Below are positions 9,177 through 55,638 of a stretch of DNA of 55,638 nucleotides, piece after piece. Source of the stretch: a virus (taxonomy: Duplodnaviria > Caudoviricetes); IMG/VR virus record IMGVR_UViG_3300028802_000018, positions 1-55,638 of that record; one strand, written 5' to 3'. A model generated the notes under the pieces. It was given only the letters and a program-made list of their open reading frames with translations, was not told the origin of the DNA and made no database searches. The position numbers were made by a program, and so were the translations under genes. The first letter of the stretch is position 1. Each line of letters begins with the position of its first letter.

Positions 9177-9180
9177 CGCT

Positions 9181-33686: not shown

Positions 33687-33776
33687 TCGAGCGCGGGCCA
33701 ACAGCTTTTGCCGGGGCTGCTGGTCGGCGTGGGCTTGGCACCTGTAACCGTCGCCACAGGTGTGGCCCGCGCTCGA
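33687..33776 (-). promoter_or_regulatory. Structured leader upstream of primase-helicase
   Basis: 14-bp perfect inverted repeat TCGAGCGCGGGCCA/TGGCCCGCGCTCGA enclosing a 7-bp CACCTGT/ACAGGTG hairpin. Confidence 0.5.
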
Positions 33777-33797
33777 TTTCAGTATATCAGATCAGGA

Positions 33798-34406
33798 TCA
33801 AAACTCCTCTGCACTTTCTGTCTCTGTCGGCGGTGCTGCGGCTGTCGGCTTGGCGTTGTTGACCGGCGGCGGAACCTCAGATGCCGCAGGAACAGCGGCT
33901 ACGGCAGCCGGCATGGCCTGGGGACGAGGCACCCACTTGGAGATCTTCAGCACCGGCTGATAGTTCGTGCCCTGCCGCGATTTGACAGGCACAACCTTCT
34001 CACAGACGATCACCGGCACGAGGCCCTGCTTTGCCTGCGGTGCGGTTTCGTACTGCTCCTCGTACACCTCCTTGATTGCGATGATGGCGGCGTTGCTGGA
34101 CGAGGAGAACTCCCGCAGCCCGCCGATTTCCTTCGGGCTGAAGACGTTGACGGCGAAACCACGCCGATGCATTGGCGTCGGCTGCGGGGCCGTCGAGCCG
34201 TTGTCCCAGACCGAATTTGGCGCCTGCCCTTCGACAAACAGAATCCACCCCGTCTTGATGTTGGCGAGGTCGAAGATGGCCGTCAGATTGACAACTTCAT
34301 TCTCGCCACCGTCCTCGGTCTTGCTGTACCAGCGGCCGGCCTTTGCGTTGAATTTCAGGTAGGGGACGAAATCCCCGCCGGTACGCGGTTCTACATTGAG
34401 TGCCAT
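33798..34406 (-). CDS. Single-stranded DNA-binding-like protein
   Basis: YLKFNAKAGRW, TNYQP...I..WVPRP, Pro/Ala linker and acidic EEF tail; between nuclease and primase. Confidence 0.6.
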   Translation of the reverse strand: MALNVEPRTGGDFVPYLKFNAKAGRWYSKTEDGGENEVVNLTAIFDLANIKTGWILFVEGQAPNSVWDNGSTAPQPTPMHRRGFAVNVFSPKEIGGLREFSSSSNAAIIAIKEVYEEQYETAPQAKQGLVPVIVCEKVVPVKSRQGTNYQPVLKISKWVPRPQAMPAAVAAVPAASEVPPPVNNAKPTAAAPPTETESAEEF

Positions 34407-34444
34407 TGCTCGTTACCTTTCCAGTTGACCGTTGTGCTTTACCG

Positions 34445-35350
34445 TTATGCCGCTGTAGCGCGCGGCCCGCTCACCGACCAGATTTGGCTCTGGCGGTAAT
34501 CCTCTGTCTCTTTAATCAGGCGTTGGCCCTGATCACAAAATTGTAGAGCAGGGCAATAGTCAGCGCAACGCTTTTGTTCAGCCGGTCGCTCCCTGATTTC
34601 GTGTCCTGCGCCTGCCAATGAACACGCTGCATTCGCCTCGGCCTCTGTATCGAACAGCTTGGTAGCGCGGACGTTCTTCCCTTTGTACAAGGCATAGACC
34701 GCTGGCCGCTCCCACCGTTCGTCGGCAGAGCATTCCGGCAAGGTATGTTGCGCTTTGCCGTGGGCCATGAGGCGTTCCCTGATGTACGCTTCGGTAACTT
34801 GACGAGGCCACATTGTTACCGGGATTACGAGTGCAGGCGTTTGTGGGTAGTCGGCGGTGTGCTTTGACTTAGCTTTCTGCCAATCGCGAAGAATGGCGAC
34901 AACTTCAAGGTTGGTAACGGTGTACCCGTGCTCGCGCAGCATCAGCGCATAGATATTTTCCTGCGCTTCCCATTCCGGCTTGGACCCGTCCTTGATGGCA
35001 TAGGTGGAAGTCATCTTGTAATCTTGCAGGCGTCCATCGCTTTCTAGTAGATAGCGATCAAACGCGCCTGAGATACGCCACCCGTGCCGCTCTATGAACA
35101 GGCGTTCCTCGCACCATGCCTGATCGTCGGCGCGCTCAAGGATGCCGTGTGCGATCTGACCCATCAGTGCCCAGATGCGCTCGCTGACATCTTCTGTAAG
35201 CTCGTCGGCATGGGCAATTTCGAGGGCACGCTTGCGAGCCGGGCCGATCATCCCTGTGACGGAGATATGCGCGTCGCCCCTGCTGTACCTGTCATTCTGC
35301 ACCGCTTTGGCGATGGATGACGGGAGGTTGAGACGGTTTGTTATTTTCAT
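34445..35350 (-). CDS. PD-(D/E)XK Cas4-like exonuclease
   Basis: ISGAFD...DYKMTS, Q.N.Y, C-terminal C...RC..YC....FC. Confidence 0.75.
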   Translation of the reverse strand: MKITNRLNLPSSIAKAVQNDRYSRGDAHISVTGMIGPARKRALEIAHADELTEDVSERIWALMGQIAHGILERADDQAWCEERLFIERHGWRISGAFDRYLLESDGRLQDYKMTSTYAIKDGSKPEWEAQENIYALMLREHGYTVTNLEVVAILRDWQKAKSKHTADYPQTPALVIPVTMWPRQVTEAYIRERLMAHGKAQHTLPECSADERWERPAVYALYKGKNVRATKLFDTEAEANAACSLAGAGHEIRERPAEQKRCADYCPALQFCDQGQRLIKETEDYRQSQIWSVSGPRATAA

Positions 35351-35724
35351 AGACCTAGTTCCCGTTTGCATACTTGGAAGATGTCATCCGGCTCACCCGG
35401 CAGCGGATCATCGAACTCGCACAAGTCGGCATTCTGGCGAACACGAATAATGCGCGAGCCGATCATTTCTAGAGCGGTGTACCGGACATCTGTTGGCGCT
35501 GCGCGCAGCCATTCATGAGTTTGGCGAGTAACGTAATCCACCATATCGCCGGAATCATCGATCCCGAAATGCCGGAGCGTTACTGATAACTGCCGCAGGC
35601 GACTGCCATACTGAGGGTCATCGAACATGGTTTTATACAGAAGCTTCTTTGCCGCGCGATAGTGGCGCGCCAGCCGCTCCCGCTCGGCGAGGGCTTTGTC
35701 GGTGGCGGTTTGTGGTTGTTTCAT
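35347..35724 (-). CDS. Hypothetical protein
   Basis: ATGA-coupled; FDDPLPGEPD. Confidence 0.6.
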   Translation of the reverse strand: MKQPQTATDKALAERERLARHYRAAKKLLYKTMFDDPQYGSRLRQLSVTLRHFGIDDSGDMVDYVTRQTHEWLRAAPTDVRYTALEMIGSRIIRVRQNADLCEFDDPLPGEPDDIFQVCKRELGL

Positions 35725-35903
35725 GATCCAGATTTCCAAATAGGCCAGCCCAGCCTTGCTAGAGCCACTAGCTCCAGTAACTTTGTGCTTGTGATAGTGT
35801 GGGCGTCAACAACCCAATCGTGTCCCTTCTCAGCGTTATCAATTTTTAGTTTCAGTGTACGTCGCGCCTCATCATGAAGCCGATCTAATTCATCAAGGTG
35901 CAT
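35721..35903 (-). CDS. Small hypothetical protein
   Basis: Overlaps both neighbours in operon. Confidence 0.5.
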   Translation of the reverse strand: MHLDELDRLHDEARRTLKLKIDNAEKGHDWVVDAHTITSTKLLELVALARLGWPIWKSGS

Positions 35904-36393
35904 CAGACAATTCCTTTGTAATACCCTTGCGAATCAATTCCGTTGATAGCGATTCCGAGCGCAGGGGTACGCCATAATACCGCAGCGTAATGAGCACCAC
36001 ATCGAGCGTCTCGGCAACGACGACCCATGCGCCCGCTCGTCTAAGACGTGCGTGCATGTCGCGTTGTCGTTGCTCGTGAATAGTGTATGTGCCGGTTCGT
36101 TGGGTGCGCTCGGTCCACCCTCTAGGCTTCAACTCAATAAAGCCTACCTTGCTGCAGTCGATAAACATCCAATCCGGCAGCCCCGCAACGACACCCATGC
36201 GCGCAGCCATGATGCGCTGCATGTCGCCATGGCGTTCGCCACGCAAATGTATAGCGATCGCATTGCCGCCGAGGCCGATCTTGCGGAAATAAGCCGCAAT
36301 GGTCAGGTGCTCAGCGGTCTCCGAGACGACCGGAGCCTTCCGAGCCTTGCGCGCAGGGCGTGCGGGTGATACATATACGGGGTTGTCGGCCAT
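35893..36393 (-). CDS. VRR-NUC-family nuclease / resolvase
   Basis: SE..EH, MGVVAGLPD, FIELK, Q......L...G. Confidence 0.75.
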   Translation of the reverse strand: MADNPVYVSPARPARKARKAPVVSETAEHLTIAAYFRKIGLGGNAIAIHLRGERHGDMQRIMAARMGVVAGLPDWMFIDCSKVGFIELKPRGWTERTQRTGTYTIHEQRQRDMHARLRRAGAWVVVAETLDVVLITLRYYGVPLRSESLSTELIRKGITKELSDAP

Positions 36394-36611
36394 CGATGCC
36401 TCCACGCATCAGTGTGGCTTGGGAGCGTCGGTGTGGCAGCCGACGCTCCTTTCATTTTAGGAGACTACGCCTCGGTACGGTGTCGCGCAAGGGTCATTTT
36501 AGGCGCGGTAAGAAGAACGCTGGCACCGGCTCGCCCGCGCGTACACGATCACCAATCACTTTGATAGCGAGTGCCCAACACCCTATGGCGTCAGCCTCCC
36601 AATCATAATCA

Positions 36612-37595
36612 TCAATTGGCGGCGAACAGGTCTGTTCTGCCGCGCTCTCGTTCGGCGGTGCGGAGGTTGGCGACGGCTTGCCGATAATAGGATGATTTGA
36701 GTTCTGCTCCAACGAAACGCCTCCCTAATTCGATCGACACATATCCAGCCGTGCCAATGCCGGTAAACGGCGATAGCACAATGTCACCTGGATTGGTCCA
36801 TATCTGCATACACCGACGCACCACCGTCAACTGCAACGGCGAGATGTGCCGCTCATCGTGTTCCTCGCGTGCCATCCGAAACGATAGCGTGTCAGATTGG
36901 TTGATATCGCTCCACACTGGATCGGCGACACGTTGCCAGACCATAATAGACTTGTGTTCTTTGAATGTCCGGTTGCCGCTAGGTTCCCATGTTCGACGCG
37001 CCTCAGTGGTTAACTCCGCATCGGTCATGTCGTCGCCATAGTAGGTTTCCAGCACGCCGGCCACCGGCTCGTCATTTTCCCCTGGCTTCCGCATAGTTAT
37101 GACGAAATCAGCAATCCCCATGCGGCTGATCGCCGAATCCTTCACAACCTGCTTGTGCAGCAGACCGAGCGCTTTTGTCCTTTGCATTGCTACAACCGGG
37201 TCTTTTCTGATTGTCACTCGCGAGTGATAGCGGAACCCGACATCCTGCGATAACCGTATGATATCCCCTGGAAAATCCCGCATTCCTATAAACCCGTCGC
37301 GGGTTATGCTTGTCGGGATTTCCATGCAATGCACGCTCATCAATCGTCCCGGTTTAAGTGCACGGAACACCCCGTCGAGCACGAACCCGAAATGCTCCCA
37401 GAATACCTTGTCGTCGCTGTTGTTTGACACGTCGCGCGGGTTGTCGCTGAACGTGTATAAGCTGGCGAAAGGGGGAGAGAAGATCGAGAAATGTACGCTA
37501 TTCTCCGGAAGCCCTTTCATCATTTCGATACAGTCTGAGTTGTAAAGTGCCCACCCCGAGCCCTGCTCTTGGGAGATAACTTTAACGTCAGTCAT
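36612..37595 (-). CDS. DNA methyltransferase, N4/N6 beta class
   Basis: Motif IV SPPF, HISPLQL, motif I LSPFTGIGT, GAELK.SY. Confidence 0.9.
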   Translation of the reverse strand: MTDVKVISQEQGSGWALYNSDCIEMMKGLPENSVHFSIFSPPFASLYTFSDNPRDVSNNSDDKVFWEHFGFVLDGVFRALKPGRLMSVHCMEIPTSITRDGFIGMRDFPGDIIRLSQDVGFRYHSRVTIRKDPVVAMQRTKALGLLHKQVVKDSAISRMGIADFVITMRKPGENDEPVAGVLETYYGDDMTDAELTTEARRTWEPSGNRTFKEHKSIMVWQRVADPVWSDINQSDTLSFRMAREEHDERHISPLQLTVVRRCMQIWTNPGDIVLSPFTGIGTAGYVSIELGRRFVGAELKSSYYRQAVANLRTAERERGRTDLFAAN

Positions 37596-37598
37596 TTT

Positions 37599-38195
37599 CT
37601 ATATCCAATCCAAGTTACATTTTCCAACGTGCGAACGATCCCACACGAACCATGCGAAAGCGAGCATCCCGCCCTTCGTTCCTTCATCCTGCACTATGGG
37701 TCCGAATAGTGTTTCGCGGCGCGCGGGAGGCCCGCTGGCAATGGCAAGTCTCCTGCGAAAAACAAACACGCGGCTCGGTGGTGACTTATCAAACAGCATG
37801 CCCCGCTCTATTCCCTCAAGGAATCTCAATTGCATCAGCATCGCTACTTTGATAGGACAAAGAGAGAGTGCGTGCCGAACAAATTCAAGTGCGATACCAA
37901 ACGGCGGATTGGTTACTATGTTTGGCGCCAGCAATCGCGATGAGAGTAAGAAATCGTCGCCGCCACCCAATCCACGATCGACTAAGTCGGATGCTATTAC
38001 TTCATGGCCGGCAGCGGAAAGGACGCGACAGATTGCCCCATCACCGCATGCTGGCTCCCAAATAGGACCGCTGAATTTCTCAACCCTTAACAACGATTCC
38101 GTCCCAATCTGCGGGGTAGGATAGAAGTCATCGGCTTGGCGATCGCCATGAGGAGCATCGCCGTTGAAACGCCGGCCGACCGTTAGATCAACCAT
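37599..38195 (-). CDS. Small amino-DNA methyltransferase
   Basis: DFYPTP, IWEPACGDG, IVTNPPF, FAWFVW. Confidence 0.8.
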   Translation of the reverse strand: MVDLTVGRRFNGDAPHGDRQADDFYPTPQIGTESLLRVEKFSGPIWEPACGDGAICRVLSAAGHEVIASDLVDRGLGGGDDFLLSSRLLAPNIVTNPPFGIALEFVRHALSLCPIKVAMLMQLRFLEGIERGMLFDKSPPSRVFVFRRRLAIASGPPARRETLFGPIVQDEGTKGGMLAFAWFVWDRSHVGKCNLDWI

Positions 38196-39592
38196 TCGGG
38201 AACTACCATAGGAACCTGAGGGCTATACGCCGCGCTTGCGTTTCTCCCTCCGATAACCTGTTCACGCATCAAGTCTCGCATATGCCCGCTCATTGCGTCG
38301 AGCATTTTGTCGAATGCTTCTTCCTTACGCCGCAGGTTGGCGACGACCGCACCCTCAAGTTCGGATGCGATGAAATAGACATCGACCGAGCGCGACTGCC
38401 CGAAGCGCCAGCATCGCCGAATTGCCTGATAGACCTGCTCGAAGCTGTCGGTCAGCCCAACCATAATCATGCGGGCGCAATGTTGGTAATTCATTCCGTG
38501 GCCGCAGATCTGAGCCTTGCTGACGAGATGCAGCGGCCGGCCATCCTTGAATCCGAGAAGTCGCGTGATCTTCTGCTCGGTCGGATCACGGCCGGCAACC
38601 TGTAGCGCCGTTGGCAACAGCCGCTCGATCGCATCCGCCTCGCTATTTAGGTTACAGAGCACCAGCCACGGCTCGTTAGGCTCCTGCAGTATGATCTCGG
38701 CGGCGGCTAGCACCCGAGCCTCGGCCGTGTCCTTGCGCACGCCTATACGCTCGCCCAGCGTTGATGCAGGCATCGGGAACAGCATCCCGCCAGTCGGCTT
38801 ATACTCGGCCGCAACCGTGACCTGTTCCAGTCGGAGCGGCGGTAGATCATATCCCGGCTCGTCGAACCCGAGATCGGCAGGATGCCGCACCATTACCGAC
38901 CATGATGCGAGCCATCGCCAGAAATCTTTGGCCGCATGACGCTTCAACCGCCAGCCATCGTTGCCCTGGCTGTGATCGTTCGCCCGGATAGACCCATCGT
39001 GGACAAAAAACATCGACAGCATTTCCTTGGCGGTCATCACCCCGAGGAACTCGGCATGTTGTCCTAGCTCGGTATAGTCGTTCGGTGCTGGAGTTGCGGT
39101 ACAGCAGAGTTTCCAGGGTGTATTGATACACGCCTCGGTCAACATGGTCCGGGTTGCGCCATCCTGGCTCTTGATGATTCCACTCTCGTCGAGCACGATA
39201 CCGGCGAACTCGCCGATGGCGAATTTCTCGAACCGCTCGTAATTGGTGACAACGATATTTGACCGGATCGCCGATTTGTCCGCTGCATAGGCTACGCTCC
39301 CGATACCGAACTTCACAGCCTCTGCGACGGTCTGCTCGGCAACGGCAAGCGGTGTAAGCACGAGAACGGGTGCGTCTTCCTCGGCAACAACAGCTTGTGC
39401 CCACGATAATTGTTGAACGGTTTTACCTAGGCCGGTGCCCTCGAACATCGCCGCGCGACCTCGACGCAAAGCCCATGACGTGATTGCTGCCTGGAATGGC
39501 TTGAGCGCGACAGGTAGCGGTGGAACCTCGCGCACCCCGCTCGGCGGTGCGGCCGGCGACTTCGAAGCGAGGAAATCGGCATAATCGCTCAT
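38183..39592 (-). CDS. SF2/SNF2-like helicase
   Basis: GTGLGKT, TNYE, LDES, TATPAPND, GMNYQ, QAIRRCWRFGQ. Confidence 0.9.
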   Translation of the reverse strand: MSDYADFLASKSPAAPPSGVREVPPLPVALKPFQAAITSWALRRGRAAMFEGTGLGKTVQQLSWAQAVVAEEDAPVLVLTPLAVAEQTVAEAVKFGIGSVAYAADKSAIRSNIVVTNYERFEKFAIGEFAGIVLDESGIIKSQDGATRTMLTEACINTPWKLCCTATPAPNDYTELGQHAEFLGVMTAKEMLSMFFVHDGSIRANDHSQGNDGWRLKRHAAKDFWRWLASWSVMVRHPADLGFDEPGYDLPPLRLEQVTVAAEYKPTGGMLFPMPASTLGERIGVRKDTAEARVLAAAEIILQEPNEPWLVLCNLNSEADAIERLLPTALQVAGRDPTEQKITRLLGFKDGRPLHLVSKAQICGHGMNYQHCARMIMVGLTDSFEQVYQAIRRCWRFGQSRSVDVYFIASELEGAVVANLRRKEEAFDKMLDAMSGHMRDLMREQVIGGRNASAAYSPQVPMVVPEWLI

Positions 39593-45666: not shown

Positions 45667-45891
45667 TCAGTCCATCCACTCGCGCGGGATTTTCAACACC
45701 TGCCCCGGATGGATCGTATATTTCTCGTCCATGCCAGGGTTGAGATCGGCAATCTTCTGATAGTCGCGGGCATGCCCAAAACGCTCAGCGATCTCCGAGA
45801 GCGTATCACCCTTGACGACCGTAACCGTGTAGCAGTCATCGTGCCGGGTGACGTTGGAGAACCAATCGTAAATGCTACCGATGATGCTCAT
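45667..45891 (-). CDS. Stand-alone LysM protein
   Basis: VTVVKGDTLSEIAERFG...YQKIADLNP.....IHPGQVLKIP. Confidence 0.9.
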   Translation of the reverse strand: MSIIGSIYDWFSNVTRHDDCYTVTVVKGDTLSEIAERFGHARDYQKIADLNPGMDEKYTIHPGQVLKIPREWMD

Positions 45892-46556
45892 TGTGATGCC
45901 TCTTCTCTGGCTTGTTGACGCGACAGAGCGTTCATCGCTGCCGCCGACCCATTTCCATAGATGCCATCAATCGCCCCCGCGTACAGACCATCCTCAGCGA
46001 GCACTTGTTGAATTGCTTTGATGCGCTCAACTACCGAGCGGATACCGTCTGATGGCGCAGGCCCCTCACCGCCATACGCTCCGTCAAGCGCGCGTTCGGC
46101 ATAGCGCATCCGTCCTGAAAAGCCTGGAAGATGTGTTGATGTTGTCCCCCCAGGACGCTCATAGGTTAACCCCGCCGAAAACACAGCATCATCAAGCGTT
46201 GCTGTCTTTTTTAGTGCGGTGATCGTGGACTTGTGTGACCCGCTCAACTCGTGAATTAGGAAACTGTAGTTTCCTTCATCCGAGGAGAATGCAAAACCGT
46301 TCTCGACGCACCATGCCTCGAATGCGCGTCGGCGTGGTCCCGTCCATTGCGCCCAGCCATAGCCGCCACGGCTACCCTCAACCGCAGGCGCAATCTCCTG
46401 CAAAGTTTTAAAGCCGGCGCTCTCGTAGCCCAGATTGCCAACGATTCCTGCCGCCTGTTCAGGCGTTAGATCAAAATATACCTCAAGACGCCTGACCAGC
46501 CATCCGCTGCGCTTCTTGTATGAGGCATCAGTGCCGGGCATATCAAAACCATTCAT
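45888..46556 (-). CDS. Endolysin: phage tail-lysozyme-like domain plus PG-binding domain
   Basis: QAAGIVGNL.YES, GYGWAQWTGPRR, YERPG; IQQVL...G.Y.GAIDGIYG. Confidence 0.85.
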   Translation of the reverse strand: MNGFDMPGTDASYKKRSGWLVRRLEVYFDLTPEQAAGIVGNLGYESAGFKTLQEIAPAVEGSRGGYGWAQWTGPRRRAFEAWCVENGFAFSSDEGNYSFLIHELSGSHKSTITALKKTATLDDAVFSAGLTYERPGGTTSTHLPGFSGRMRYAERALDGAYGGEGPAPSDGIRSVVERIKAIQQVLAEDGLYAGAIDGIYGNGSAAAMNALSRQQAREEASQ

Positions 46557-46757: not shown

Positions 46758-46786
46758 AGTGTAATACACGGCCGCGCCGCCGTCAA
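46758..46786 (-). promoter_or_regulatory. Sigma70 promoter with palindromic operator
   Basis: TTGACG-N17-TACACT; GTGTA-T-TACAC inverted repeat over the -10. Confidence 0.72.
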
Positions 46787-47217
46787 TCCTGCCGGCTACG
46801 CCTCCCAGGCGGTCCCTGGAGAAGCTGGCTCTGTAGACCAGACAAAGCACGGCTCAGTGCTTCGATCCGCTCCGCAGAGGTTGCTACCTGTACCTGAAGC
46901 GATTTCACTCGCTCGTCTACCAGCATCATCTGCCGCATGCTCAGGTCGAGACGGTCGATGTGCTGGTTGGCGATAATATTGTCTTTTTCCAGGTTCTCAA
47001 TCCGCAACGCTATCTCATGAACCCTGACCCCGCCCACCGTATCCAGGCGGGTGACGTGGGCATCCAGCGCGTTCGCCCGCTGGATAATGTGCATCGTGGT
47101 CTGGTCGAGATGAGCGGCCCACCAGATAGTAAAGCCAAGCTGCGTGCTGACCGCGATAATGACCGCAACGGCAGCGCTAGTGCGCCAGCTATTTACGTTG
47201 CCGTTCCCGTCACTCAC
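46783..47217 (-). CDS. N-terminal TM plus coiled-coil protein
   Basis: TM ending IWWAA, long heptad region. Confidence 0.6.
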   Translation of the reverse strand: MSDGNGNVNSWRTSAAVAVIIAVSTQLGFTIWWAAHLDQTTMHIIQRANALDAHVTRLDTVGGVRVHEIALRIENLEKDNIIANQHIDRLDLSMRQMMLVDERVKSLQVQVATSAERIEALSRALSGLQSQLLQGPPGRRSRQD

Positions 47218-47226
47218 CGCAAACGG

Positions 47227-47487
47227 TCAAGACTGATCGCCTCCTTCACCATCAGCGTGGACCAACTGATTCTGTCGCTCAATCTCCCGTTCCTTGAGAC
47301 GTAGGTAGATCGCGTCAATATCCTCGCTCGCATAGACCCGCCGTGCTGGCTCCGGTCGCAGTGCATCAGGCCCGCTCCATCGTGGCACGCACGGCTGCGG
47401 CTTGATCGCATGATTCGCAAACAGCGTCCCGCAATGGATGCATCGCGGATTACCGGGAGACATTTCATGTTCAGGAATGCTCATCAT
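47227..47487 (-). CDS. Small Cys-motif protein
   Basis: RCIHCG; GGAGG RBS, coupled. Confidence 0.5.
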   Translation of the reverse strand: MMSIPEHEMSPGNPRCIHCGTLFANHAIKPQPCVPRWSGPDALRPEPARRVYASEDIDAIYLRLKEREIERQNQLVHADGEGGDQS

Positions 47488-47801
47488 CCGCCTCCCAACT
47501 TCAGTATCGGACTGAGCAGTACACCTAGAATCGAGACCACGATAGCCCCGATTGCCCACGCCAACCGTTCCAAGCGTGCGCCACGCTGCTCACATGCTCT
47601 CAGGTGCATGATCACCCGCTCTTCCGTTCGTGCGGCCCAATCCTCTAATTTCCGCACCCTGGCTTCCAATCCGTTCACGGCACTCTCCCCAATGTACTGG
47701 TGTGGGTGGAGATCGTGCGTGAAGGGATACACACCAGAACGGTGCGCCAACCGGAAAACTCCCGGATTTTTAACGGAATAATCCTCCGAAACGTTGCTCA
47801 T
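47484..47801 (-). CDS. Coiled-coil plus C-terminal TM protein
   Basis: H...C.QR..RLERLAW followed by TM. Confidence 0.6.
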   Translation of the reverse strand: MSNVSEDYSVKNPGVFRLAHRSGVYPFTHDLHPHQYIGESAVNGLEARVRKLEDWAARTEERVIMHLRACEQRGARLERLAWAIGAIVVSILGVLLSPILKLGGG

Positions 47802-48100
47802 GTCGTTTTTGCGTCCGTCTCGGCCCGCTGTTCAGCCCTGCCCTGAAGATTGCTGGCTATCGCTGTTGCGGTCACGAGAGCGTCTTTCATCGAGTTTGAA
47901 GCGAGTTCGACCTTGCGAACGTCCTCGGCTACGATGTCGAGCTTTTGCGAGGTTACAAGCGAATGCGCGGCGGCCAGAGTGATCGCGCGCTTGTTCATCA
48001 CGTTCTGATAGATACCCCAGAAAACGCCGATAGCGAGGCCAAGCTGCCCGATTGTGTTCAGCCAGGATTGAAACTCGCTCATGTCGGTCTCATCATGCAC
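47798..48100 (-). CDS. Single-TM protein
   Basis: N-terminal TM; ASNSMKDALV. Confidence 0.55.
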   Translation of the reverse strand: MHDETDMSEFQSWLNTIGQLGLAIGVFWGIYQNVMNKRAITLAAAHSLVTSQKLDIVAEDVRKVELASNSMKDALVTATAIASNLQGRAEQRAETDAKTT

Positions 48101-48273
48101 CGCTCGACCATGAACTTGATCAGATCACGCTGCCCTTCCCCAGAAGACGCGAGCAAATACAGCGTAAACGCCATAAACAGCATCAGCGATAACAGCGCAG
48201 GGGACACCTTGAGCGCGTCAACAACCTGCTTGCCTATCCCCTCAACCTTGGAAATCGTTGGCGGATCGGACAT
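48079..48273 (-). CDS. Single-TM protein
   Basis: VVDALKVSPALLSL.. TM. Confidence 0.55.
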   Translation of the reverse strand: MSDPPTISKVEGIGKQVVDALKVSPALLSLMLFMAFTLYLLASSGEGQRDLIKFMVERCMMRPT

Positions 48274-48277
48274 TACT

Positions 48278-51040
48278 CTACCATGACGTGTTCATCGCCC
48301 ATTTCGGATAATTGTTGAAATCAACCGGTGGGGAAAGCGCGTTAAATCGAGTCTGACAATCAGACAACAGGCTCGACATGCCAGTAACCCCCGCAGCGGT
48401 CATGCATTGAAACACGCCAAGCCTAACCTCCTGATAATTTGAAACCATCCCGGTAGAGGTGAATGATACCGGAACTAGTCCGATATTCTCAACCCCAAGG
48501 CCCGCGCTAGTGGTAGATATATTTATTGCCGATCCCCCTGGAGTTGCTGACAGATTAAAGGTATTTCCAGACCTGTTAACTGCATAATAAGGCGTATTTG
48601 ACGACAGCCCCCCTGGTGGAGTTACCGGCTGTGCATGGTTATCATACGCCGGGAATATCCATTTATCACCATTCGCCGGAGTATAGCCCTGTCCTGGCTC
48701 AATCGCAGTAAACACGCCGGGAGTGCCGCTCGCCCAGCTAATCGCCACGCCACTGGGTAATCCAACCATTCCCGCGCCTAGCGACGCGAAGTGCGCGTCA
48801 TCTGAAATCGTGTCCGGGTCTGTGTACGGCGTCCCGCCATCTACATAAACCAAGTCGTAGTAGGTATATATCTGACCATAACTAAACGTCGTTGCAACAT
48901 AGTTCCACCAAGTCTGCATACCCTGTAGCATCGTGAGCGCATTTGCGTCTTCACATAATGTATAAGCAAGGGTGTAGGTATGCGCGGTATAGTCCAGCAT
49001 CCAAGGTGCGTGTTGCGTATTATTTGGTGCCCATAGCTTATTTGTCGAGACATAGCTATTGCCACCGGCAATCCATAGATTAGGCCAATTAACACTAGCT
49101 GTTCGACAATCTGATAGCATGTCCGGAATACCGGTTCCGTATGGGTCGGTATCCGGCCATAAACCATCGGCAAAAACCAGATCGCGTAATGCCCATGCTA
49201 GGTTTCTGATTGTATAAGCAAATTCAGTTACGACACCATAGGCTGTCGATGGAGATGTTGGGTTACGCGCGCCGGGGCCATACTGAAGCAGGCCGCCCAT
49301 AGCTGCTTCTAATATCAAGTCCAGATAAACCGGTTCACCGAACACCTCGTAAGCGTAAGCAGCCGTGGATGGCATGTGATCTGTAGTTGTTCCGTCAAAC
49401 CCCGCGCAAACATTTGTATTGGGGGGCAGCGTAAACCCAGCCCCTGTCGTGCCAGCGCTGGGGTTCCATGTCAGTGTGTCGTAGCCTGTGGTCGGCATGT
49501 TTGCATAAGTAGCATTGTAAAGCTGCGCTGGTCCATGCGTGCTTAGGTCATAAAGACCCGTCCCAAAATGCGCACGAGATAGACCAATCATTCTCGCATA
49601 AAGCTCATCAACCACAGCTTGATTGCTAAAATGCCGTCTCTGCCAATCTGTTATCAACCCAATATCGCCACGATTGCCCGCCCCCGCAGTGTGTAGTGTT
49701 AGCGGCCCGACGCTCAATGTATCCCACGAATAAGTATACGACCCAACTGACGTTAAGCATGAATCAATAGTTATACTTAGATCAAACGGCAGAAAGCATC
49801 TCGTTGATCTACGATAAACTGGATCGAAACGGACTTGCACTAGTCCAGGAGCCGATACGCTACCTTGCGCTTGAACCCAATTAGATTTACCTTCCGCAGT
49901 CGCGCCAAACTGCGATCCAAAATGCAACACATTCCTAACCGGAGTAAGGGTGTGTGTCCCTGATCCGCCATTTGTCGCTGTTGCGGGCGCTTCTGTACTC
50001 GCTGCGGAAGTTAATGAAAGAGAATTGGTATTATCGCTATTGGCGTGAACAAAATAAAGTTGCGTCAAGCTCCAACCAGCCGGCAAAGTGCCCGTTGTCG
50101 TCAACACACACGGAACTGAATTGTATGCGGCTTCATGTTGACCAGCGCCATGATACCAATCAGGTGTTGTATTGCAGGTGAAGCTCGCTCCACTCGTCCA
50201 CGTTACGTCGCGTGCGGTATACCCAAATGGAGGGGTGATTGTCGCGGTCCCGCTGCCCCCAGGCCCTACGGAGTCGATTGTGAATGCACTTAACGCTCGC
50301 CAACCCTTGGCCGGGGTGTCTTGATTATAGTACGGTTGCCAAACCCTCGGCAGATACCAGAACCCGGCAAGGTTTCCGCTGGTATCGTTAACCGCGACGA
50401 CGTAATGCAGGCATTCAAGCTGCCCGTGAGGAGTTCCCGCAGCGTTGACCTTCGTCCAGTGTCGCTCGCTCAAACCTCCCCCGCCATCCGCATATGTGAC
50501 TTTCTGAAAATTATTGGCGTCGTTCTCAAGCTCCGCTGTCCACGCCCCCGTCAGGCCAAAATTTGAGCCTGCCCCTGTCATCTTCGTGACAAAATTTGCC
50601 GCGTATATCTCTGTTCTTGATCGCCCAGAAGCCGCAGGAGCGGAACCCCCACTTAGAACATTGACGGTGATTCCGCCGGTCGTTATCGCTTTTGGTGAGC
50701 ACGCCGGAATGACCGAACAATGCTTCATCGCCCCACTAGCCCACGAGCGAACCTGCGAGAACGTGCAGGGCCAAACGGAATCATCGCTGTCGAACTGAAG
50801 CTCTGGGTACTCTCCGCTTGGAATATCACCGTCAGCGAATTGTAGCCCAAACGGCGGAACTGGAGCGCCAGCCCCTACCGTCGAGCCTGATGTGCTAACT
50901 AGCGTCAGGGTCGTAATCAGACCGCTCGGCGGCGGTGCTCCTGATGGTGCTCCACCACGGCCAAAAAGCCGAGCCATAGATGAGACCGGAACCATAGCAA
51001 CCCCGGCAGCAGCCCCGGCTAGGACGCTACGTCGGTTCAC
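48278..51040 (-). CDS. Large protein with Tat-type signal peptide, putative glycan-active/adhesin (920 aa)
   Basis: GTG after GGAG; MNRRSVLAGAAAGVAMVPVSSMA; RGDIG, H.PS..Y...GE..YLD, R..AW.LR, APWM.DY motifs; two LP.GL...T.Y(Y/F) inserts. Confidence 0.65.
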   Translation of the reverse strand: MNRRSVLAGAAAGVAMVPVSSMARLFGRGGAPSGAPPPSGLITTLTLVSTSGSTVGAGAPVPPFGLQFADGDIPSGEYPELQFDSDDSVWPCTFSQVRSWASGAMKHCSVIPACSPKAITTGGITVNVLSGGSAPAASGRSRTEIYAANFVTKMTGAGSNFGLTGAWTAELENDANNFQKVTYADGGGGLSERHWTKVNAAGTPHGQLECLHYVVAVNDTSGNLAGFWYLPRVWQPYYNQDTPAKGWRALSAFTIDSVGPGGSGTATITPPFGYTARDVTWTSGASFTCNTTPDWYHGAGQHEAAYNSVPCVLTTTGTLPAGWSLTQLYFVHANSDNTNSLSLTSAASTEAPATATNGGSGTHTLTPVRNVLHFGSQFGATAEGKSNWVQAQGSVSAPGLVQVRFDPVYRRSTRCFLPFDLSITIDSCLTSVGSYTYSWDTLSVGPLTLHTAGAGNRGDIGLITDWQRRHFSNQAVVDELYARMIGLSRAHFGTGLYDLSTHGPAQLYNATYANMPTTGYDTLTWNPSAGTTGAGFTLPPNTNVCAGFDGTTTDHMPSTAAYAYEVFGEPVYLDLILEAAMGGLLQYGPGARNPTSPSTAYGVVTEFAYTIRNLAWALRDLVFADGLWPDTDPYGTGIPDMLSDCRTASVNWPNLWIAGGNSYVSTNKLWAPNNTQHAPWMLDYTAHTYTLAYTLCEDANALTMLQGMQTWWNYVATTFSYGQIYTYYDLVYVDGGTPYTDPDTISDDAHFASLGAGMVGLPSGVAISWASGTPGVFTAIEPGQGYTPANGDKWIFPAYDNHAQPVTPPGGLSSNTPYYAVNRSGNTFNLSATPGGSAINISTTSAGLGVENIGLVPVSFTSTGMVSNYQEVRLGVFQCMTAAGVTGMSSLLSDCQTRFNALSPPVDFNNYPKWAMNTSW

Positions 51041-52014
51041 TGTATTCTCCAGAAGTCGCGCCCTGAAGGTGGTGCAGCACCCGCAAGCTCCCATGCTCCA
51101 ATTGTTGGTGTCGAGCCGGATCGCGATGAACCAACAATATCTGTCACAGGAGTTCCCGAAGCCGTCCCATTGTTCGCCAACTTGGCGGACCCTGATTTAA
51201 CCCGGAAATCCTCTGTCGTGGCCGTCGTGTTTTCCCATTCTGTTGCCTTAACAACACTTACCTGTCCGCTCGTGTCGTAGTTAGTTCCACCAAAACTACC
51301 TTTGTCCGTTGCGTTATTTGCGCACGTCCCAGCCGTACCGGCGTAGTCCGTCGCATACCCAGCAACAACAACATTTTTTAATAATGGCGCGCCGTACCCT
51401 ATCCCAAAACCAGTTACACTTGTTCCGGCCCCTAAACAAACAACTGTAATATCTTGAACAACGTTACTACCGTTTGCACTTCTAAAACCATTGGTATTAT
51501 TTATGTTATAAATAAGAGAGTTTGTAGCCGTAGTTGTACCAGTTATTTGCACTCCATAACTGGTGGTTTCACTAGACCCGGCATGACAAATAACACACTT
51601 GTCTATAGTTCTTCCGGCAAAAGAATTGTCTATGTATTCAACAACTGTACCATAATCACTATCTTTCTTTAGCTGCAATCTAGTTAACTGAAAATTAGCA
51701 CAAGTGATAGCAAGTACATCAGTGCTGCCGGATGTCATTCTGATCGCTGCCCCATTTGAGGCGTTATACCTCAAGGCATTGGTCAGCTTGTTTGCATTGT
51801 CCACGAAGCTGTTGGTTGACCCGGCCGTCAGCAAGACGTTAAACACGCCAGCCGTTACCCCGCTCAGTGTCTGCGTTGCGGTAATGGTGATCTCGGCATT
51901 CTGGCAGTTACCCTCTTGGTGATCCAGTAGAGTCGCTGCAAACGACGCGAACCACAGCGCCGGAGTCGCGTAATCTGCCCCTCCGTTTGGCCCGATGATC
52001 TTGCTAACTGTCAT
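51037..52014 (-). CDS. Beta-helix-like protein without signal peptide
   Basis: Asn/Thr/Gly-rich; C-terminal DIVG..R....TIGAWE. Confidence 0.6.
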   Translation of the reverse strand: MTVSKIIGPNGGADYATPALWFASFAATLLDHQEGNCQNAEITITATQTLSGVTAGVFNVLLTAGSTNSFVDNANKLTNALRYNASNGAAIRMTSGSTDVLAITCANFQLTRLQLKKDSDYGTVVEYIDNSFAGRTIDKCVICHAGSSETTSYGVQITGTTTATNSLIYNINNTNGFRSANGSNVVQDITVVCLGAGTSVTGFGIGYGAPLLKNVVVAGYATDYAGTAGTCANNATDKGSFGGTNYDTSGQVSVVKATEWENTTATTEDFRVKSGSAKLANNGTASGTPVTDIVGSSRSGSTPTIGAWELAGAAPPSGRDFWRIQ

Positions 52015-52490
52015 GGCCGGATTATCCTAGGGTCGCGTAACGCCAGCTTAATGCTGACAAGCTCCCGTAATGCATCCGGGGTCACAGACAGGGTATCGTC
52101 AACGGCAAGGCGTCGTCCCATTCGACGCTCAACCGCTCGCTCCAGAGCATCCAAGTCAAGGGTATGCCGCCGGAACCAGCCAAGCCATCCCTCTGGCGCG
52201 TTATCGACCGCGATCAGCCAAGACATCGCCCGAACCGGATCATCAACCTGGATATCGACATCGACAATCCGCCACTCAGGATGACCTAGAACCTCTCGCC
52301 CCGGATGCCGCTCGCTATCGATCACGTCCACCACATCGCCACGCTGCGGGCGCGCCAGGAGGCCCTTATGCCGATCTGATGCCCAGACACACAGACGTGG
52401 TTTAGGCACCTCAGCAGCCCGCACACGCGGGAGAAACGGGATCGCGCATAGCGCCGCGAGCCAGCTAAATATCGCTCGGCGTGACGCCAT
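52011..52490 (-). CDS. Hypothetical protein with Tat-like signal
   Basis: MASRRAIFSWLAALCAIPFLPRVRA-A; RGDVV.V...P.WRIV. Confidence 0.6.
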   Translation of the reverse strand: MASRRAIFSWLAALCAIPFLPRVRAAEVPKPRLCVWASDRHKGLLARPQRGDVVDVIDSERHPGREVLGHPEWRIVDVDIQVDDPVRAMSWLIAVDNAPEGWLGWFRRHTLDLDALERAVERRMGRRLAVDDTLSVTPDALRELVSIKLALRDPRIIRP

Positions 52491-52890
52491 GATCCCTCGC
52501 TAGATATTCGAGCACCAGAGGCGGCAGGTTCGCCGGGTCGCACGGCTCGCGGTACGGCTGCCGAGATGTTTCTTTCGGATCGGCCAAAAAATCACCGTGT
52601 CCGTCATAGCGTGAGAACAGGCATTCGCAATCGGTGATTCCATGGTAGAGCGCCACGATCAGGTGCTCCGTATGCGCAGCGATCAGCCGGCGATCGTTCG
52701 CGGCGATCGGAATCACCTCATCCTCGCCATCCTTCCCCATCCGGTAAACCGCTATCGGGCGATCAGCCGAGACCATGTGATCGTGCTCGTGAGAGTGAAG
52801 GATCGTATGGCTACCCCGCCCGACCAACCGAAACGGATAGCAATGAAACGGTCCAACCGACCACGTACCCTTAAAAAGACGCTCGCCCAT
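52465..52890 (-). CDS. Cupin-like protein
   Basis: HSHEHDH...I.A.TEH...AL metal-binding pattern. Confidence 0.6.
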   Translation of the reverse strand: MGERLFKGTWSVGPFHCYPFRLVGRGSHTILHSHEHDHMVSADRPIAVYRMGKDGEDEVIPIAANDRRLIAAHTEHLIVALYHGITDCECLFSRYDGHGDFLADPKETSRQPYREPCDPANLPPLVLEYLARDHGVTPSDI

Positions 52891-54345
52891 CTAATTAGCC
52901 GTCCATGTCCCTGTGAAACTTACAGTAGAATAGTGCGTTGAGTCCCGCCCAAGAAGGCAAATCGCGTTGCCGACTACGGCAGTTGCGACCAGCGTCCCCG
53001 TCCCGGCCGTCCCATAAGCCGTGCGCGCCGTATTCTCATACATTGCCGATGACCCCAAAGCTGCTAGGGTTATCGCCGTGGATACGTTGTTGTCGTTGAG
53101 GATACAGAACTGATACCCGGCTACAGGAACCGGTGGCGTCACGGTACATGTGCCCGTGCAGTAGAAATTCTGCCGAGGCCCCGCTAGCGAGACAGAAGTC
53201 CCCGCCGATGTCGGTGGAACAGGAGGCGCTGCCCACGTCATGTTATCGAGCAGTACCGTCGTTCCCGTCTGCGTTGCCGGCGTCGGCAAACCAAATGCAG
53301 CTTTCCAGTTTGTCCCGTCTGAGAACCAACTGGTTGCCTGATTTGCCCCTAATGTGATAGCTGCCAACCCGTTCACGGTCGATGTCGCTGGATCGAGGAT
53401 GTTTCCAACCCCTGCTGTCTGATAGTCAAAAGCAAACCCTGAAGCAAACGATCCGGTCGCCTGCGGAACGATATCGGTCTGCGTGACCGTGTTCGTCCGG
53501 TTGACCATCTTCCCCGCATCTGTTGATAGCACCGTATAGGCGCTATTTCCGCTTTGCGTGTTGAGCGCCGCCGTCGTCCCCACCGTGAATGTTCCGGTTC
53601 CAGGCGAAGGAGTGATAACCACATTCGGAGTTCCCGCCGTCACGCTGACCGAGCCACCCGACCCACAAGCTGAACCGTTTGCAATATGGTTCCCGTTCGC
53701 ATCAATCTTGACGCAATCTCCCGAAGTCTGCGTCCCGGTCGTCGTCACATATGCGGTCGTATTCCCCGAGCGTGTGCCTACCGAGGGAGCCACACCAGCG
53801 CCACCACCGATCACCGGAAGGTTTGCTGTGAGCGCCCCGGACGATGCTAACGTGCCGCTTGCGGTATAGGCCAGTACCCCGCCGCTGGTCCCCGCCGTCA
53901 AGCCGGTGCCGCCGTTGGCGACAGGCAACGTCCCCGTTACGCCGGTTGTGAGCGGCAGTCCAGTAGCGGAAGTCAAAGTGCCACTGCTAGGAGTTCCCAA
54001 GGCACCACCGTTCACCAAAACAGACCCAGCACTACCAACATTGACCCCCAAAGCCGTAGCTACGCTGGTCCCTAAACCGCTCACATCGTTTGCGATTCGC
54101 ACTGTACAAGTGTTATTTGCGCAGACAATAGTCTTATTGGTGAGCGCCTTTGCGGTGGCCGATAGGTACGTATCGAGCGCGTTCGGCGTCGTTTTGACGG
54201 CCGGGTTAGCGGTCTGGAAGACCGGGATAGATTCAGTTCCGACTATAGCTCCAGCCGCCCCCAAACTATCTATGGTTCCATCAGCGCGAGCTATTCCAGC
54301 CGCCAGAAGAAGGCAGGAGACAAGCGCAATTCGCGTCTTTAGCAT
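52891..54345 (-). CDS. Fibre protein with Sec signal peptide (484 aa)
   Basis: MLKTRIALVSCLLLAAGIARA-DG; IDSLGAAGAIVGTESIPVFQ N-domain; GTLPVANGGTG fibre repeat; SDGTNW. Confidence 0.78.
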   Translation of the reverse strand: MLKTRIALVSCLLLAAGIARADGTIDSLGAAGAIVGTESIPVFQTANPAVKTTPNALDTYLSATAKALTNKTIVCANNTCTVRIANDVSGLGTSVATALGVNVGSAGSVLVNGGALGTPSSGTLTSATGLPLTTGVTGTLPVANGGTGLTAGTSGGVLAYTASGTLASSGALTANLPVIGGGAGVAPSVGTRSGNTTAYVTTTGTQTSGDCVKIDANGNHIANGSACGSGGSVSVTAGTPNVVITPSPGTGTFTVGTTAALNTQSGNSAYTVLSTDAGKMVNRTNTVTQTDIVPQATGSFASGFAFDYQTAGVGNILDPATSTVNGLAAITLGANQATSWFSDGTNWKAAFGLPTPATQTGTTVLLDNMTWAAPPVPPTSAGTSVSLAGPRQNFYCTGTCTVTPPVPVAGYQFCILNDNNVSTAITLAALGSSAMYENTARTAYGTAGTGTLVATAVVGNAICLLGRDSTHYSTVSFTGTWTAN

Positions 54346-54355
54346 TGCTCTGCCC

Positions 54356-54559
54356 TCATTGAATCTTGAACTTCGACCCGACATCAATCAACAAAACCGA
54401 CCCCGTGTCTATCAATAAGAATACCGGAACTGCTGGCGCACCGACCCTACCTTGCGTTTCCTGTGGTATACCAATACCAATTCCAATGCCAGCATTCGTA
54501 TCGGATGATAAACCTATCACAACCACGGAAACCGCCAGTATGAAGATGATCTTTCTCAT
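54356..54559 (-). CDS. Small secreted adaptor peptide
   Basis: Signal ending DTNA, then GIGIGIGIP, C-terminal LLIDTGSVLLIDVG. Confidence 0.7.
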   Translation of the reverse strand: MRKIIFILAVSVVVIGLSSDTNAGIGIGIGIPQETQGRVGAPAVPVFLLIDTGSVLLIDVGSKFKIQ

Positions 54560-54563
54560 ATCA

Positions 54564-54887
54564 TCAATCTAGATCATAGAGAGCAATGATTGACGTGCAA
54601 TTAGTATTAGTAACCATCACCCTCTTAACCCGAAATGGTATAATTGCGCCAGATTGAACATTGGTAAAGGTTACAGCCGACGTATCGTTTGCTAGAATGA
54701 CCGCTATGTTGCAGGCCGTAGCATCACCGATATAAATCCCCACAGTGACACCACCGGGGAGATTTACCGTATTGCTTGTCGCAGCGATCACCGCTTTCCA
54801 AGCCTGATTTGTTGGGCTAGTAGGAGGAGGACCGGCCTCGGCTGCAAAACCAAGAATGATGAATAGAACGAAGATCAGTGATTTCAT
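54564..54887 (-). CDS. Head-spike base protein (RcGTA Rcc01079-like) with Sec signal peptide
   Basis: AGGAG RBS; MKSLIFVLFIILGFAAEA-G; GIYIG....NIAV.......VTF.NV..G.I.PFRVKRV..T.T....IIALY. Confidence 0.75.
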   Translation of the reverse strand: MKSLIFVLFIILGFAAEAGPPPTSPTNQAWKAVIAATSNTVNLPGGVTVGIYIGDATACNIAVILANDTSAVTFTNVQSGAIIPFRVKRVMVTNTNCTSIIALYDLD

Positions 54888-54898
54888 TTCATCAACTC

Positions 54899-55315
54899 CT
54901 ACGGGGACCGAGCCACTATGAACCAATTCGTACCATTAAAGGCAAATGTGGCCGACCCGTAATCCGACGTTATCACATGAGTGCTTGCGCCGTCTATCGT
55001 ACCAGACGACGGGCTTACGGTGATATTATTGGTTCCGGCAGAACCGCTCGCATCTGAAACGCGGACGATATTTGCCCCCTGCGGTGCAACCGGGAGAAAG
55101 ATAGCCGATGCGGCACCGATAAATATAAACGCTGTCCCGATCCCAGCCGGAATGACCCCGTTTGCCGTAATGTTGACGTATTGCATCGATGCGGCAAAGC
55201 CGGCTACAATGTCGTTGGTGTCGGCATCAAACCGCGACGCTGTTATCGGGACGCCCGCCGTGGCGTCGTTGACCCAACTGTAAAGCCGCGAAAACACATT
55301 TCCAGTCCACGCCAC
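54899..55315 (-). CDS. Short tail-fibre anchor protein, no signal peptide
   Basis: MAW.G.VF.R.YSW..D...G..I.ASRFD.D..DI..G attachment-type domain; NNITV.P..GTIDG....I..DYGS.TF..NGTNW. Confidence 0.7.
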   Translation of the reverse strand: MAWTGNVFSRLYSWVNDATAGVPITASRFDADTNDIVAGFAASMQYVNITANGVIPAGIGTAFIFIGAASAIFLPVAPQGANIVRVSDASGSAGTNNITVSPSSGTIDGASTHVITSDYGSATFAFNGTNWFIVARSP

Positions 55316-55439
55316 CTGTCATATTCCTTCCATCGGATGGGCGCGCCTCATCACGGCGGACCCATCATTAACGATAATCTACCCTTGCAGACGATCCAGC
55401 GCTACCGACATAGATGGGTGAACCGTTGGGGACAATACC

Positions 55440-55638
55440 ATGATCTGGGCTGACAAGCTGGCGCTGGTTTCGCTAGTAACGATTTGCGCTGTCTTGGCGC
55501 TCGGCCTCGTAATGACAGGGACTCTCCACGAATTCCGCCCAAACGGTGCGGTAAAATTTCTGACTTTTGTGATTGGAATCCCCTGGATCGCGCTTCGGAT
55601 AATCCACACGATCTGTGGCGGTCCTTTCTGGAAAAGGA
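55440..55638 (+). CDS. Two-TM membrane protein, truncated at window end
   Basis: Hand-translated MIWADKLALVSLVTICAVLALGLV...FLTFVIGIPWIALRII; GGGGA RBS. Confidence 0.55.
   Translation, partial: MIWADKLALVSLVTICAVLALGLVMTGTLHEFRPNGAVKFLTFVIGIPWIALRIIHTICGGPFWKR

Follow-up and report, generated by a model that had tools for sequence, protein, structure and literature searches.

We describe a module of three consecutive genes, B, C and D, at positions 52,891 to 54,887 (minus strand) of IMG/VR virus record IMGVR_UViG_3300028802_000018, a 55,638-base stretch of tailed-phage DNA that we refer to, at its full length, as the window. B is a spike base of the Rcc01079 family, to which the base of the RcGTA head spike belongs; C is a genuine conserved gene, whose product has the features expected of an adaptor peptide; and D encodes a mosaic fibre with a conserved N-terminal module. 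All three begin with predicted export leaders. In our judgement the chances are about even that the three proteins make up one spike, derived from a head spike of the Rcc01079/Rcc01080 type and re-routed through the cell envelope. The genes and their parts are as follows.

54564-54887, minus strand: gene B, spike base, 107 amino acids (aa), with leader
54834-54887, minus strand: B leader MKSLIFVLFIILGFAAEA, residues 1-18, predicted Sec signal peptide by sequence inspection, cleavage before G19
54356-54559, minus strand: gene C, adaptor-peptide precursor, 67 aa, with leader
54491-54559, minus strand: C leader, residues 1-23, predicted cleavage after T-N-A by inspection
54467-54490, minus strand: (Gly-Ile)x4 motif, C residues 24-31 (GIGIGIGIP spans 24-32), proposed dock for the B oligomer
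54359-54421, minus strand: C-terminal triple repeat FLLIDTGS / VLLIDVGS / KFKIQ, C residues 47-67, proposed dock for the fibre module
52891-54345, minus strand: gene D, mosaic fibre, 484 aa, with leader
54283-54345, minus strand: D leader MLKTRIALVSCLLLAAGIARA, residues 1-21, predicted cleavage between A-R-A and D
54166-54282, minus strand: N-terminal module of D (DGTIDSL..GTESIPVFQTANPAVKTTP), residues 22-60, proposed docking module

A preliminary description of this DNA had noted a resemblance between B and Rcc01079 and proposed a comparison with a profile of that family. B scores 41.1 bits (E 1.6e-10) against NCBIfam NF048002 ('spike base protein, RCAP_Rcc01079 family'; curated cut-off 28), with residues 31-104 aligned to positions 16-85 of the 85 in the profile, and the resemblance is further borne out by matches of a family profile in the Protein Data Bank (PDB) and by the closest structural neighbor. 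B alone matched PHROG 12296 ('tail fiber protein', E 3.2e-7) and, in the PDB, had its best match in 8CJZ 'Spike Base Protein' (E 1.6e-4), with only a weak match to Rcc01079 (E 0.51). A profile of 11 close B homologues found 8CJZ (2.4e-6) and Rcc01079 (0.0026) and no others at E<=10, and a 75-sequence family profile with B as its first sequence reached Rcc01079 at 4.1e-14 and chain h of 8CJZ at 4e-11; this larger profile gave four matches at E<=1, the third-ranked chain scoring only 0.0087. The AlphaFold model of B is a small beta sandwich, in keeping with the jellyroll of about 85 residues that marks this family, with seven strands within residues 29-103 and a mean predicted local distance difference test (pLDDT) score of 73. 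Its top Foldseek match is the RcGTA capsid entry (6tb9_A1, probability 1.00, TM 0.48/0.58), with 8CJZ, titled 'Carin1 bacteriophage mature capsid', in third place, although E-values were about 1e-2 (1.7e-2 for the top match). The 8CJZ chain is the spike base of Cobetia marina phage Carin-1, in a podovirus capsid entry; this chain has 92 aa and its alignment with B begins at residue 22-23, so that it differs from B in having no leader. When 1.84 billion cluster representatives were scanned with the profile of the 11 close homologues, 2821 proteins were found at E<=0.001, and patterns from the same 11 sequences had no match among genome contigs. A genome-contig search with another alignment gave two weak matches in Eubacteriales.

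The solved RcGTA head spike (PDB 6TB9 and related entries) suggests what B might hold. According to the available text of PMC7296036, residues 2-10 of Rcc01080 (IALGLGLGL) are arranged as a five-point star, lodged in hydrophobic pockets of the Rcc01079 pentamer, in agreement with the N-terminal GLGLGL-type attachment peptide given in the preliminary description. The two systems share a base of the same family and an alternating small/hydrophobic peptide encoded directly downstream of it. They differ in that B, C and D all have export leaders and B has a conserved cysteine pair, and in that the docking peptide is a separate protein of 44 residues in place of the fibre N-terminus. The peptide and the receptor-binding body are thus not one polypeptide as in Rcc01080, since C stops after 67 codons. 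When compared with PDB sequences at E up to 10, neither C nor D matched Rcc01080, whose deposited chain we assume is long enough to be included.

The mature C peptide is predicted to be 44 aa, with LLIDTGSVLLIDVGSKFKIQ at its C-terminus, and the alternating motif lies exactly where the leader would be removed. A word-based homologue search with C recovered only C itself, and a PDB sequence search gave only chance matches to thioredoxins. Relatives were therefore identified by synteny, as genes between B and D, rather than by sequence search. A C-like gene between a leader-bearing B and a leader-bearing fibre was found in seven distinct loci, namely the window and the six contigs L002, L004, L022, L024, L025 and L027 (L026 is identical to L025 in this region, and L023 is the same contig as L004). 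In all seven, C has the same layout: the leader comes first, the alternating motif follows where cleavage is predicted, and a proline-rich linker leads to a triple repeat at the C-terminus. The sequences around the predicted cut, which is shown by a slash, are listed below.

Window: A/GIGIGIGIP
L024: AQ/GIGIGIGIDD
L004: AQ/GFGFGMGFDD
L002: AQ/GFGFGMGLDD
L027: AQ/GFGFGFGVHD
L022: A/DGLGISIGISVP (GLGISIGISV type)
L025: A/(A)IDMGAGAGISE

The hydrophobic residue varies among these genes, but the alternation persists. The strict form, (G-hydrophobic)x4, occurs five times in six-frame translation of 270,116 bases, all five at the predicted leader cut of a C gene; 50 residue shuffles gave a mean of 0.08 occurrences and a maximum of 1. 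The earlier reading of GIGIGIGIP at the cleavage site of a mature protein of about 44 aa is confirmed in its coordinates and its motif, and the pattern proves to be conserved in the seven C genes. Docking of C on B seems to us reasonably probable on these grounds. A predicted complex of four mature B chains with mature C gave ipSAE values of 0.29 and 0.22 (mark, 0.32), obtained without controls for a tetramer that may be the wrong oligomer; we take these values as evidence on neither side of the question of binding.

C and D could conceivably have been two halves of one frameshifted protein. A -1 frameshift signal was predicted in rcc01079 and an Rcc01079-Rcc01080 fusion proposed by Hynes et al. 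in 2016 (PMC5026251, available text), and in the later RcGTA structure, as far as its accessible description goes, the two are separate chains. Between B, C and D we saw neither a frameshift signal nor a need for one. The start of C lies 4 nucleotides (nt) past the B stop; that of D lies 10 nt past the C stop and in a different frame. B is preceded by AGGAG 8 nt upstream and D by GAGGG. We rejected fusion of C and D by frameshifting, as D has a start codon, a ribosome-binding site and a leader of its own and the six further loci show the same split.

Pairs of a base and an alternating N-terminus are also found in phages whose bases have no leader. In Verrucomicrobia phage P8625, gp24 starts MIGLGLDLSL and directly follows gp23, a leaderless base homologue of 82 aa; in the uncultured phages L010 and L011, a leaderless base is followed by a protein starting MKMGIGIGW, and in L012 by one starting MGWGNGISIGW. 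As in the window, a base homologue is directly followed by an alternating hydrophobic/small N-terminus, but there are no leaders and no separate adaptor, the motif being carried by the long fibre itself. The genes are annotated merely as tail fibre or hypothetical protein. Leaderless bases commonly precede fibres with Rcc01080-like N-termini, and the alternating motif is, judging from these gene orders, a general partner of the Rcc01079 base family, with exceptions (L003, L008, L009, L108 and L109) to which we return below.

At the other end of the proposed adaptor, the evidence comes from the fibre. Straight after its leader, MLKTRIALVSCLLLAAGIARA, D continues with DGTIDSLGAAGAIVGTESIPVFQ, into which the I..L.AA..I.G.E..PV.Q domain previously noted at the start of the third gene fits exactly. 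The module has the consensus DGTIDSL..GTE.IPVFQ, and D22, T24, I25, L28, G36, E38, P41, F43 and ANPAV are invariant in 16 module sequences. A search with D residues 1-110 found 57 proteins, 19 of them with the module and belonging to 19 distinct fibre clusters; in D-family proteins the N-terminus is conserved and the remainder is mosaic. One protein, P0181, has the same D-type module at residues 2-3 and no leader. The module was not found in any cultured phage. The nearest structure clusters to D in the Atlas are viral fibre-like proteins, which we take as a lead only, and the AlphaFold model of the D monomer is poor (mean pLDDT 45.8).

The D module and the triple repeat travel together. Eight viral contigs (L014-L021) were fetched because they carry the module. 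In those with an N-terminal match (L014-L018, L020 and L021), the gene directly upstream of the fibre encodes a leader-bearing protein of 74-359 aa; in L019 the initial match lay elsewhere, and a second module-bearing fibre (from 5756) is preceded by a leader-bearing protein of 53 aa. The triple repeat forms the very C-terminus of the upstream protein in 8/8, for example LLVDTGSALLVNTGVKMLVQ, LLINVGSKFLINTGSVLCIQ, ILVNTGSVLLVNTGSAMLVQ and LLIQTGSKLLIQTGSVLLIQ. Together with L004, L002, L022, L024 and L025, it closes the protein upstream of every D-type fibre examined. A regular expression for the repeat matched, in 273,828 bases, only C-termini of upstream proteins and window C, and missed the variants of L018, L004 and L002; it counts against this result that the expression was composed with the repeats already known. 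The proteins that carry the repeat vary in their N-terminal part, and the alternating motif is found only where B lies upstream. This co-occurrence of repeat and module, with the alternating motif restricted to loci with B, is the pattern predicted by a two-ended adaptor. The triple repeat is probably a fibre dock, three repeats suggest one for each subunit of a trimeric fibre, and docking between C and D appears about as credible as that between B and C. The small repeat-bearing protein of L014 (3698-3985) carries the complete triple repeat twice over, with six repeats in all, and might hold two fibres. The leader-bearing proteins upstream of the C-like genes in L015 and L016 were considered as hidden spike bases and discarded, with hhalign probabilities below 1%.

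Of the earlier proposal that the tiny protein bridges base and fibre, the placement of the motif stands, as does a triple repeat always ahead of a D-type module, both as a bridge predicts; the contacts themselves remain predictions. C could instead be a small periplasmic assembly factor, whose repeats template trimerisation of the D N-terminus and which is then released, with D or B attaching in some other way. A repeat-bearing protein always adjoins the D-type fibre whatever lies upstream, and many such loci have no B (L014-L021; no B-like protein was found in the two checked by hhalign), as an assembly factor would have it. We nevertheless consider this role improbable, as the alternating motif, which is used for docking in the solved RcGTA spike, is present only where B is, and the genes of known fibre chaperones usually lie downstream of the fibre gene.

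The three-gene module differs from the solved spikes in its leaders. These were called by inspection and by hydropathy, with a mean Kyte-Doolittle value of >=2.0 over 11 residues. B begins with MKSLIFVLFIILGFAAEA followed by GPPP and has a basic start (MK), a core (LIFVLFIILGF) and A-E-A at the predicted cleavage site; the corresponding parts are MRK, IIFILAVSVVVIGL and T-N-A in C and MLKTR, IALVSCLLLAAGI and A-R-A in D. Inspection shows that the Sec-type pattern of a basic n-region, a hydrophobic core spanning 10-15 positions and small residues at -3/-1 fits B, C, D and all homologues, and it is kept although the leader sequences themselves diverge. Among the close B homologues, 11/11 have a leader ending in A-x-A and two invariant cysteines (C59 and C97).

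The cysteines follow the leaders. Among the best 150 of the 2821 B-family representatives, 88 are leader-bearing and 62 are not. Exactly two cysteines are found in the last 75 residues in 76 of the 88, the others having zero (6), one (3), three (2) or four (1), and the leaderless bases have zero (43), one (12) or two (7). The classes were set by a crude hydropathy threshold and the best-150 list is biased to the query's own class, which weakens the comparison; at least three of the leaderless bases with two cysteines fall just below the threshold, so that the true link is if anything tighter. The leaderless base P0156 begins with a PP..G..VLNQ arm, the region that follows the predicted cleavage site in leader-bearing bases. 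As for the fibres, 19/19 of those with a D-type module have a leader, the module starting at residues 19-25, and the number of cysteines after the module is even in every case (0, 4, 4, 4, 6, 6, 6, 6, 8, 8, 8, 8, 8, 10, 10, 10, 12, 12 and 14); the mature part of D has 8 cysteines in near pairs. By comparison, 17 of the 26 matches in the D search with neither module nor leader have no cysteine. Such linkage of a cysteine pair to a leader is expected of a protein oxidised outside the cytoplasm, and the correlation supports real export and disulfide bonding.

It could be argued that the hydrophobic N-termini stay uncleaved, as membrane anchors or as parts of the protein, and that assembly takes place in the cytoplasm, giving a conventional head spike or tail fibre. 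The leader calls do depend on inspection and hydropathy, and cultured relatives such as ppBjS10J-1 have leaderless fibres. We regard this as very improbable given the basic start, hydrophobic core and small -3/-1 residues kept despite divergence, the link between leaders and the B cysteine pair (76/88), even cysteine counts in 19/19 D-type fibres, which are expected only for proteins oxidised outside the cytoplasm, and the lack of an alternative methionine in B before residue 91. Export of B, C and D is, from these sequence features, very probable.

These observations lead us to the following model. The precursors of B, C and D would be exported by Sec and their leaders removed by signal peptidase. 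Cleavage would expose the N-termini with which leaderless relatives start, the PP..NQ arm of B, the Gly-Ile peptide of C and the DGTID module of D. B and D would fold in the periplasm with disulfide bonds, B forming a ring that would be pentameric by homology. The (Gly-Ile)x4 N-terminus of C would sit in hydrophobic pockets of the B ring, as IALGLGLGL of Rcc01080 does on Rcc01079, and each of its three tandem repeats would bind the N-terminal module of one subunit in a trimeric D fibre, such that C would bridge a five-fold base and a three-fold fibre, with an array of short linear repeats for either partner. Only once the holin opens the inner membrane at lysis would the completed spike come into contact with the capsid, itself built in the cytoplasm; the spike would then be found on capsid vertices, binding host surface polysaccharide.

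Where the spike ends up is the least certain step of this model. The preliminary description had it on the head. B does fall in a family of head-spike bases; the capsid location itself is drawn only from the two solved members, and the genes are in a tail-fibre slot. Capsid vertices are favoured by the family membership, by the retained N-terminal arm and by the pair of loci L008 and L009, whose capsid proteins are 50% identical and whose bases, 40% identical, lie at corresponding positions a short distance of a few genes past the capsid gene. The gene order just downstream of the capsid gene is the same in the two, and the base is leader-bearing in L008 and leaderless in L009. In the family of G002, a genome that carries one of the three closest capsid genes (76% identity), the base family occurs in 2/301 sampled genomes, and both copies are leaderless and in prophage head modules. 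We propose the vertex location tentatively, rating it somewhat short of even.

Several points weigh against a virion spike of the kind proposed. B in the window is far from the capsid gene. C in the window offers four hydrophobic positions, a further difference from Rcc01080, which has five, and five are found in only 2/7 C variants, the remaining variants having four. In L008 the leader-bearing base is followed by a leader-bearing, pectate-lyase-like protein of 769 aa, with no C-like gene; in L009 the base precedes a 1028-aa fibre without an alternating N-terminus; and the bases of L003, L108 and L109 are not followed by any fibre. (About 3 kb downstream of the leaderless spike base that adjoins the L003 capsid gene, a short open reading frame at 7382-7525 starts with MTNLPTRGIGLTGGGPLLPSFGLGLGP and may mark where the head fibre of that phage begins.) In the textbook view, tailed-phage virions are completed in the cytoplasm; we know of no tailed phage that adds periplasmic proteins to its virions, and this final step would be without precedent. 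A search of the literature for phage fibres or tailspikes with signal peptides, in the text available, turned up no exported virion parts. A phiCbK paper was set aside as a precedent for signal peptides, the phrase occurring, in its accessible text, in a reference title only.

This lack of precedent, along with many exported lyase-like neighbours, keeps another role alive, in which B, C, D and the other exported fibre- and lyase-like proteins never join the virion and act on the envelope or the surroundings of the producing cell. They might mask or destroy receptor polysaccharide, blocking superinfection or keeping progeny from sticking to debris, or loosen exopolysaccharide before release. 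The phage has at least eight proteins with export leaders. Provided that translation of H (920 aa) begins at the GTG in the GTGA overlap with the G stop, the protein has a Tat-type leader, MNRRSVLAGAAAG. The Atlas model of H lies near clusters of the PcRGLX type (exo-rhamnogalacturonan lyase; TM 0.63, a lead only), some of them named Tat-signal proteins; a phage-encoded, Tat-exported polysaccharide lyase, if H is one, would be unusual. A 597-aa protein (24794-26587, minus strand) has a leader and, by sequence reading, a pectate-lyase-like N-terminal region with no family match; its gene lies between the early and terminase genes, at a distance from those for the other fibre-like proteins. In L002 and L004, the modules with B follow genes for membrane proteins that resemble O-antigen ligase, as judged from their sequences, which fits a cell-surface role. 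Pantoea stewartii WceF, in the available text of PMC7949094, is a bacterial exported enzyme with a tailspike fold that, like the proteins imagined here, acts on surface glycans outside the cytoplasm. The likeness is by description and not by sequence, and WceF differs in being a chromosomal enzyme of an exopolysaccharide cluster and not a phage part, with no base or adaptor. We think a role outside the virion unlikely, although by no means negligible, because B retains the N-terminal arm of its family, D retains the docking module that leaderless relatives have at their very N-terminus, the genes sit in the late-gene fibre slot, and bases with and without a leader occupy the same capsid-adjacent place in L008 and L009.

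Two further exported proteins, p751 (3591-5816) and p756 (5831-8008), both on the minus strand and about 740 aa each, are encoded between the head-to-tail adaptor and a 532-aa tail gene. Their first 75 residues, comprising a leader and a loosely D-like module (..ASTTLGASDVMPIVQGG.TKKL), are 80% identical and the remainder is unrelated, so that they look like two exchangeable exported spikes. Nothing was found at this position in ppBjS10J-1.

B, C and D belong to a larger block, of which the other genes are as follows.

54899-55315, minus strand: gene A, 138 aa, no leader
52465-52890, minus strand: gene E, 141 aa, no leader
52011-52490, minus strand: gene F, 159 aa, Tat-like leader
51037-52014, minus strand: gene G, 325 aa, no leader
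48278-51040, minus strand: gene H, 920 aa, Tat-like leader

The Tat-like leader of F contains SRRAIF. Pfam and PHROGs gave no match for C, D, E or F and weak, sub-threshold ones for G and H. Leaderless A matches baseplate and tail-fibre PHROGs in their N-terminal or anchor regions (phrog_20556, E 1.3e-8), and its adjacency to B is not conserved in other loci. E is His-rich (HSHEHDH) and, although leaderless, is surrounded by exported proteins. The G+C content of B and C is 46% (GC3 42-49%) compared with 56% for the genome and 58% for D, and this difference suggests separate acquisition of the base-adaptor pair and the fibre. The 532-aa protein (1599-3197) matches a 526-aa protein of ppBjS10J-1 (E 4e-53), with weak correspondence of adjoining genes. 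In ppBjS10J-1 this region is followed by two further internal proteins, two leaderless fibres and the lysis genes. If about 5 kb missing between the window ends is allowed for, the order here is tail/ejection genes, A-H and lysis cassette, such that A-H fill a fibre slot of the ppBjS10J-1 type. From this position ahead of the lysis cassette, A-H are probably late genes. A scan of 47500-55638 for promoters and terminators gave chance-level results only.

The virus is a soil-type podovirus. Its record is linear and estimated to be 94% complete, with essentially every gene on the minus strand. Other landmarks of the genome are listed here.

22668-24155: large terminase
20824-22509: portal
15257-16291: major capsid protein
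8007-9221, minus strand: SU10-type head-to-tail adaptor
31528-39592: replication genes
45888-46556: lysozyme (Phage_lysozyme2)
45667-45891: LysM protein
46783-48273: small membrane proteins

The capsid protein shares 57% identity with its counterpart in Bradyrhizobium phage ppBjS10J-1 and 46% with the one in Myxococcus phage Mx8. The nearest genomic capsid copies (76% identity) sit in metagenome-assembled genomes of Xanthobacteraceae and other alphaproteobacteria, and for this reason the host is probably a diderm alphaproteobacterium. At 404 aa, the SU10-type adaptor is about twice the usual length, with three tandem GGVLGDEE copies in an inserted Gly-rich region. A 475-aa protein of the head/tail module (11458-12885, minus strand) has an MptE-like domain (PF01973, E 1.6e-14), which also occurs in some motility-associated glycosylation factors, and could be a virion-modifying enzyme.

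New here are the cysteine patterns of leader-bearing bases and fibres, the triple repeat ahead of every D-type fibre found and the Rcc01080-like starts of fibres behind leaderless bases. Relatives of a solved head spike bear export signals together with the cysteine signature of oxidised, extracytoplasmic proteins. This leader-bearing class is not rare, as it includes 88 of the best 150 base representatives and 19 fibre clusters with a D-type module. More broadly, a class of uncultured tailed phages might export its receptor-binding appendages, among them spike bases, fibres and depolymerase-like spikes, through Sec or Tat, fold them with disulfide bonds in the periplasm and attach them to particles built in the cytoplasm only within seconds of the holin opening the inner membrane, with adaptor peptides that solve the mismatch between five-fold and three-fold symmetry. 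We regard this generalisation as doubtful for now; if true, it would give tailed phages an undescribed route of morphogenesis. It would also imply a modular docking code, in which an alternating Gly-hydrophobic head and an LL.NTGS triple tail are matched to a DGTID fibre module, and the adaptor would offer two short, portable docking tags for grafting fibres onto bases. If the exported parts do reach virions, the last step of assembly would be coupled to lysis; if they do not, these phages would have turned virion parts into secreted tools.

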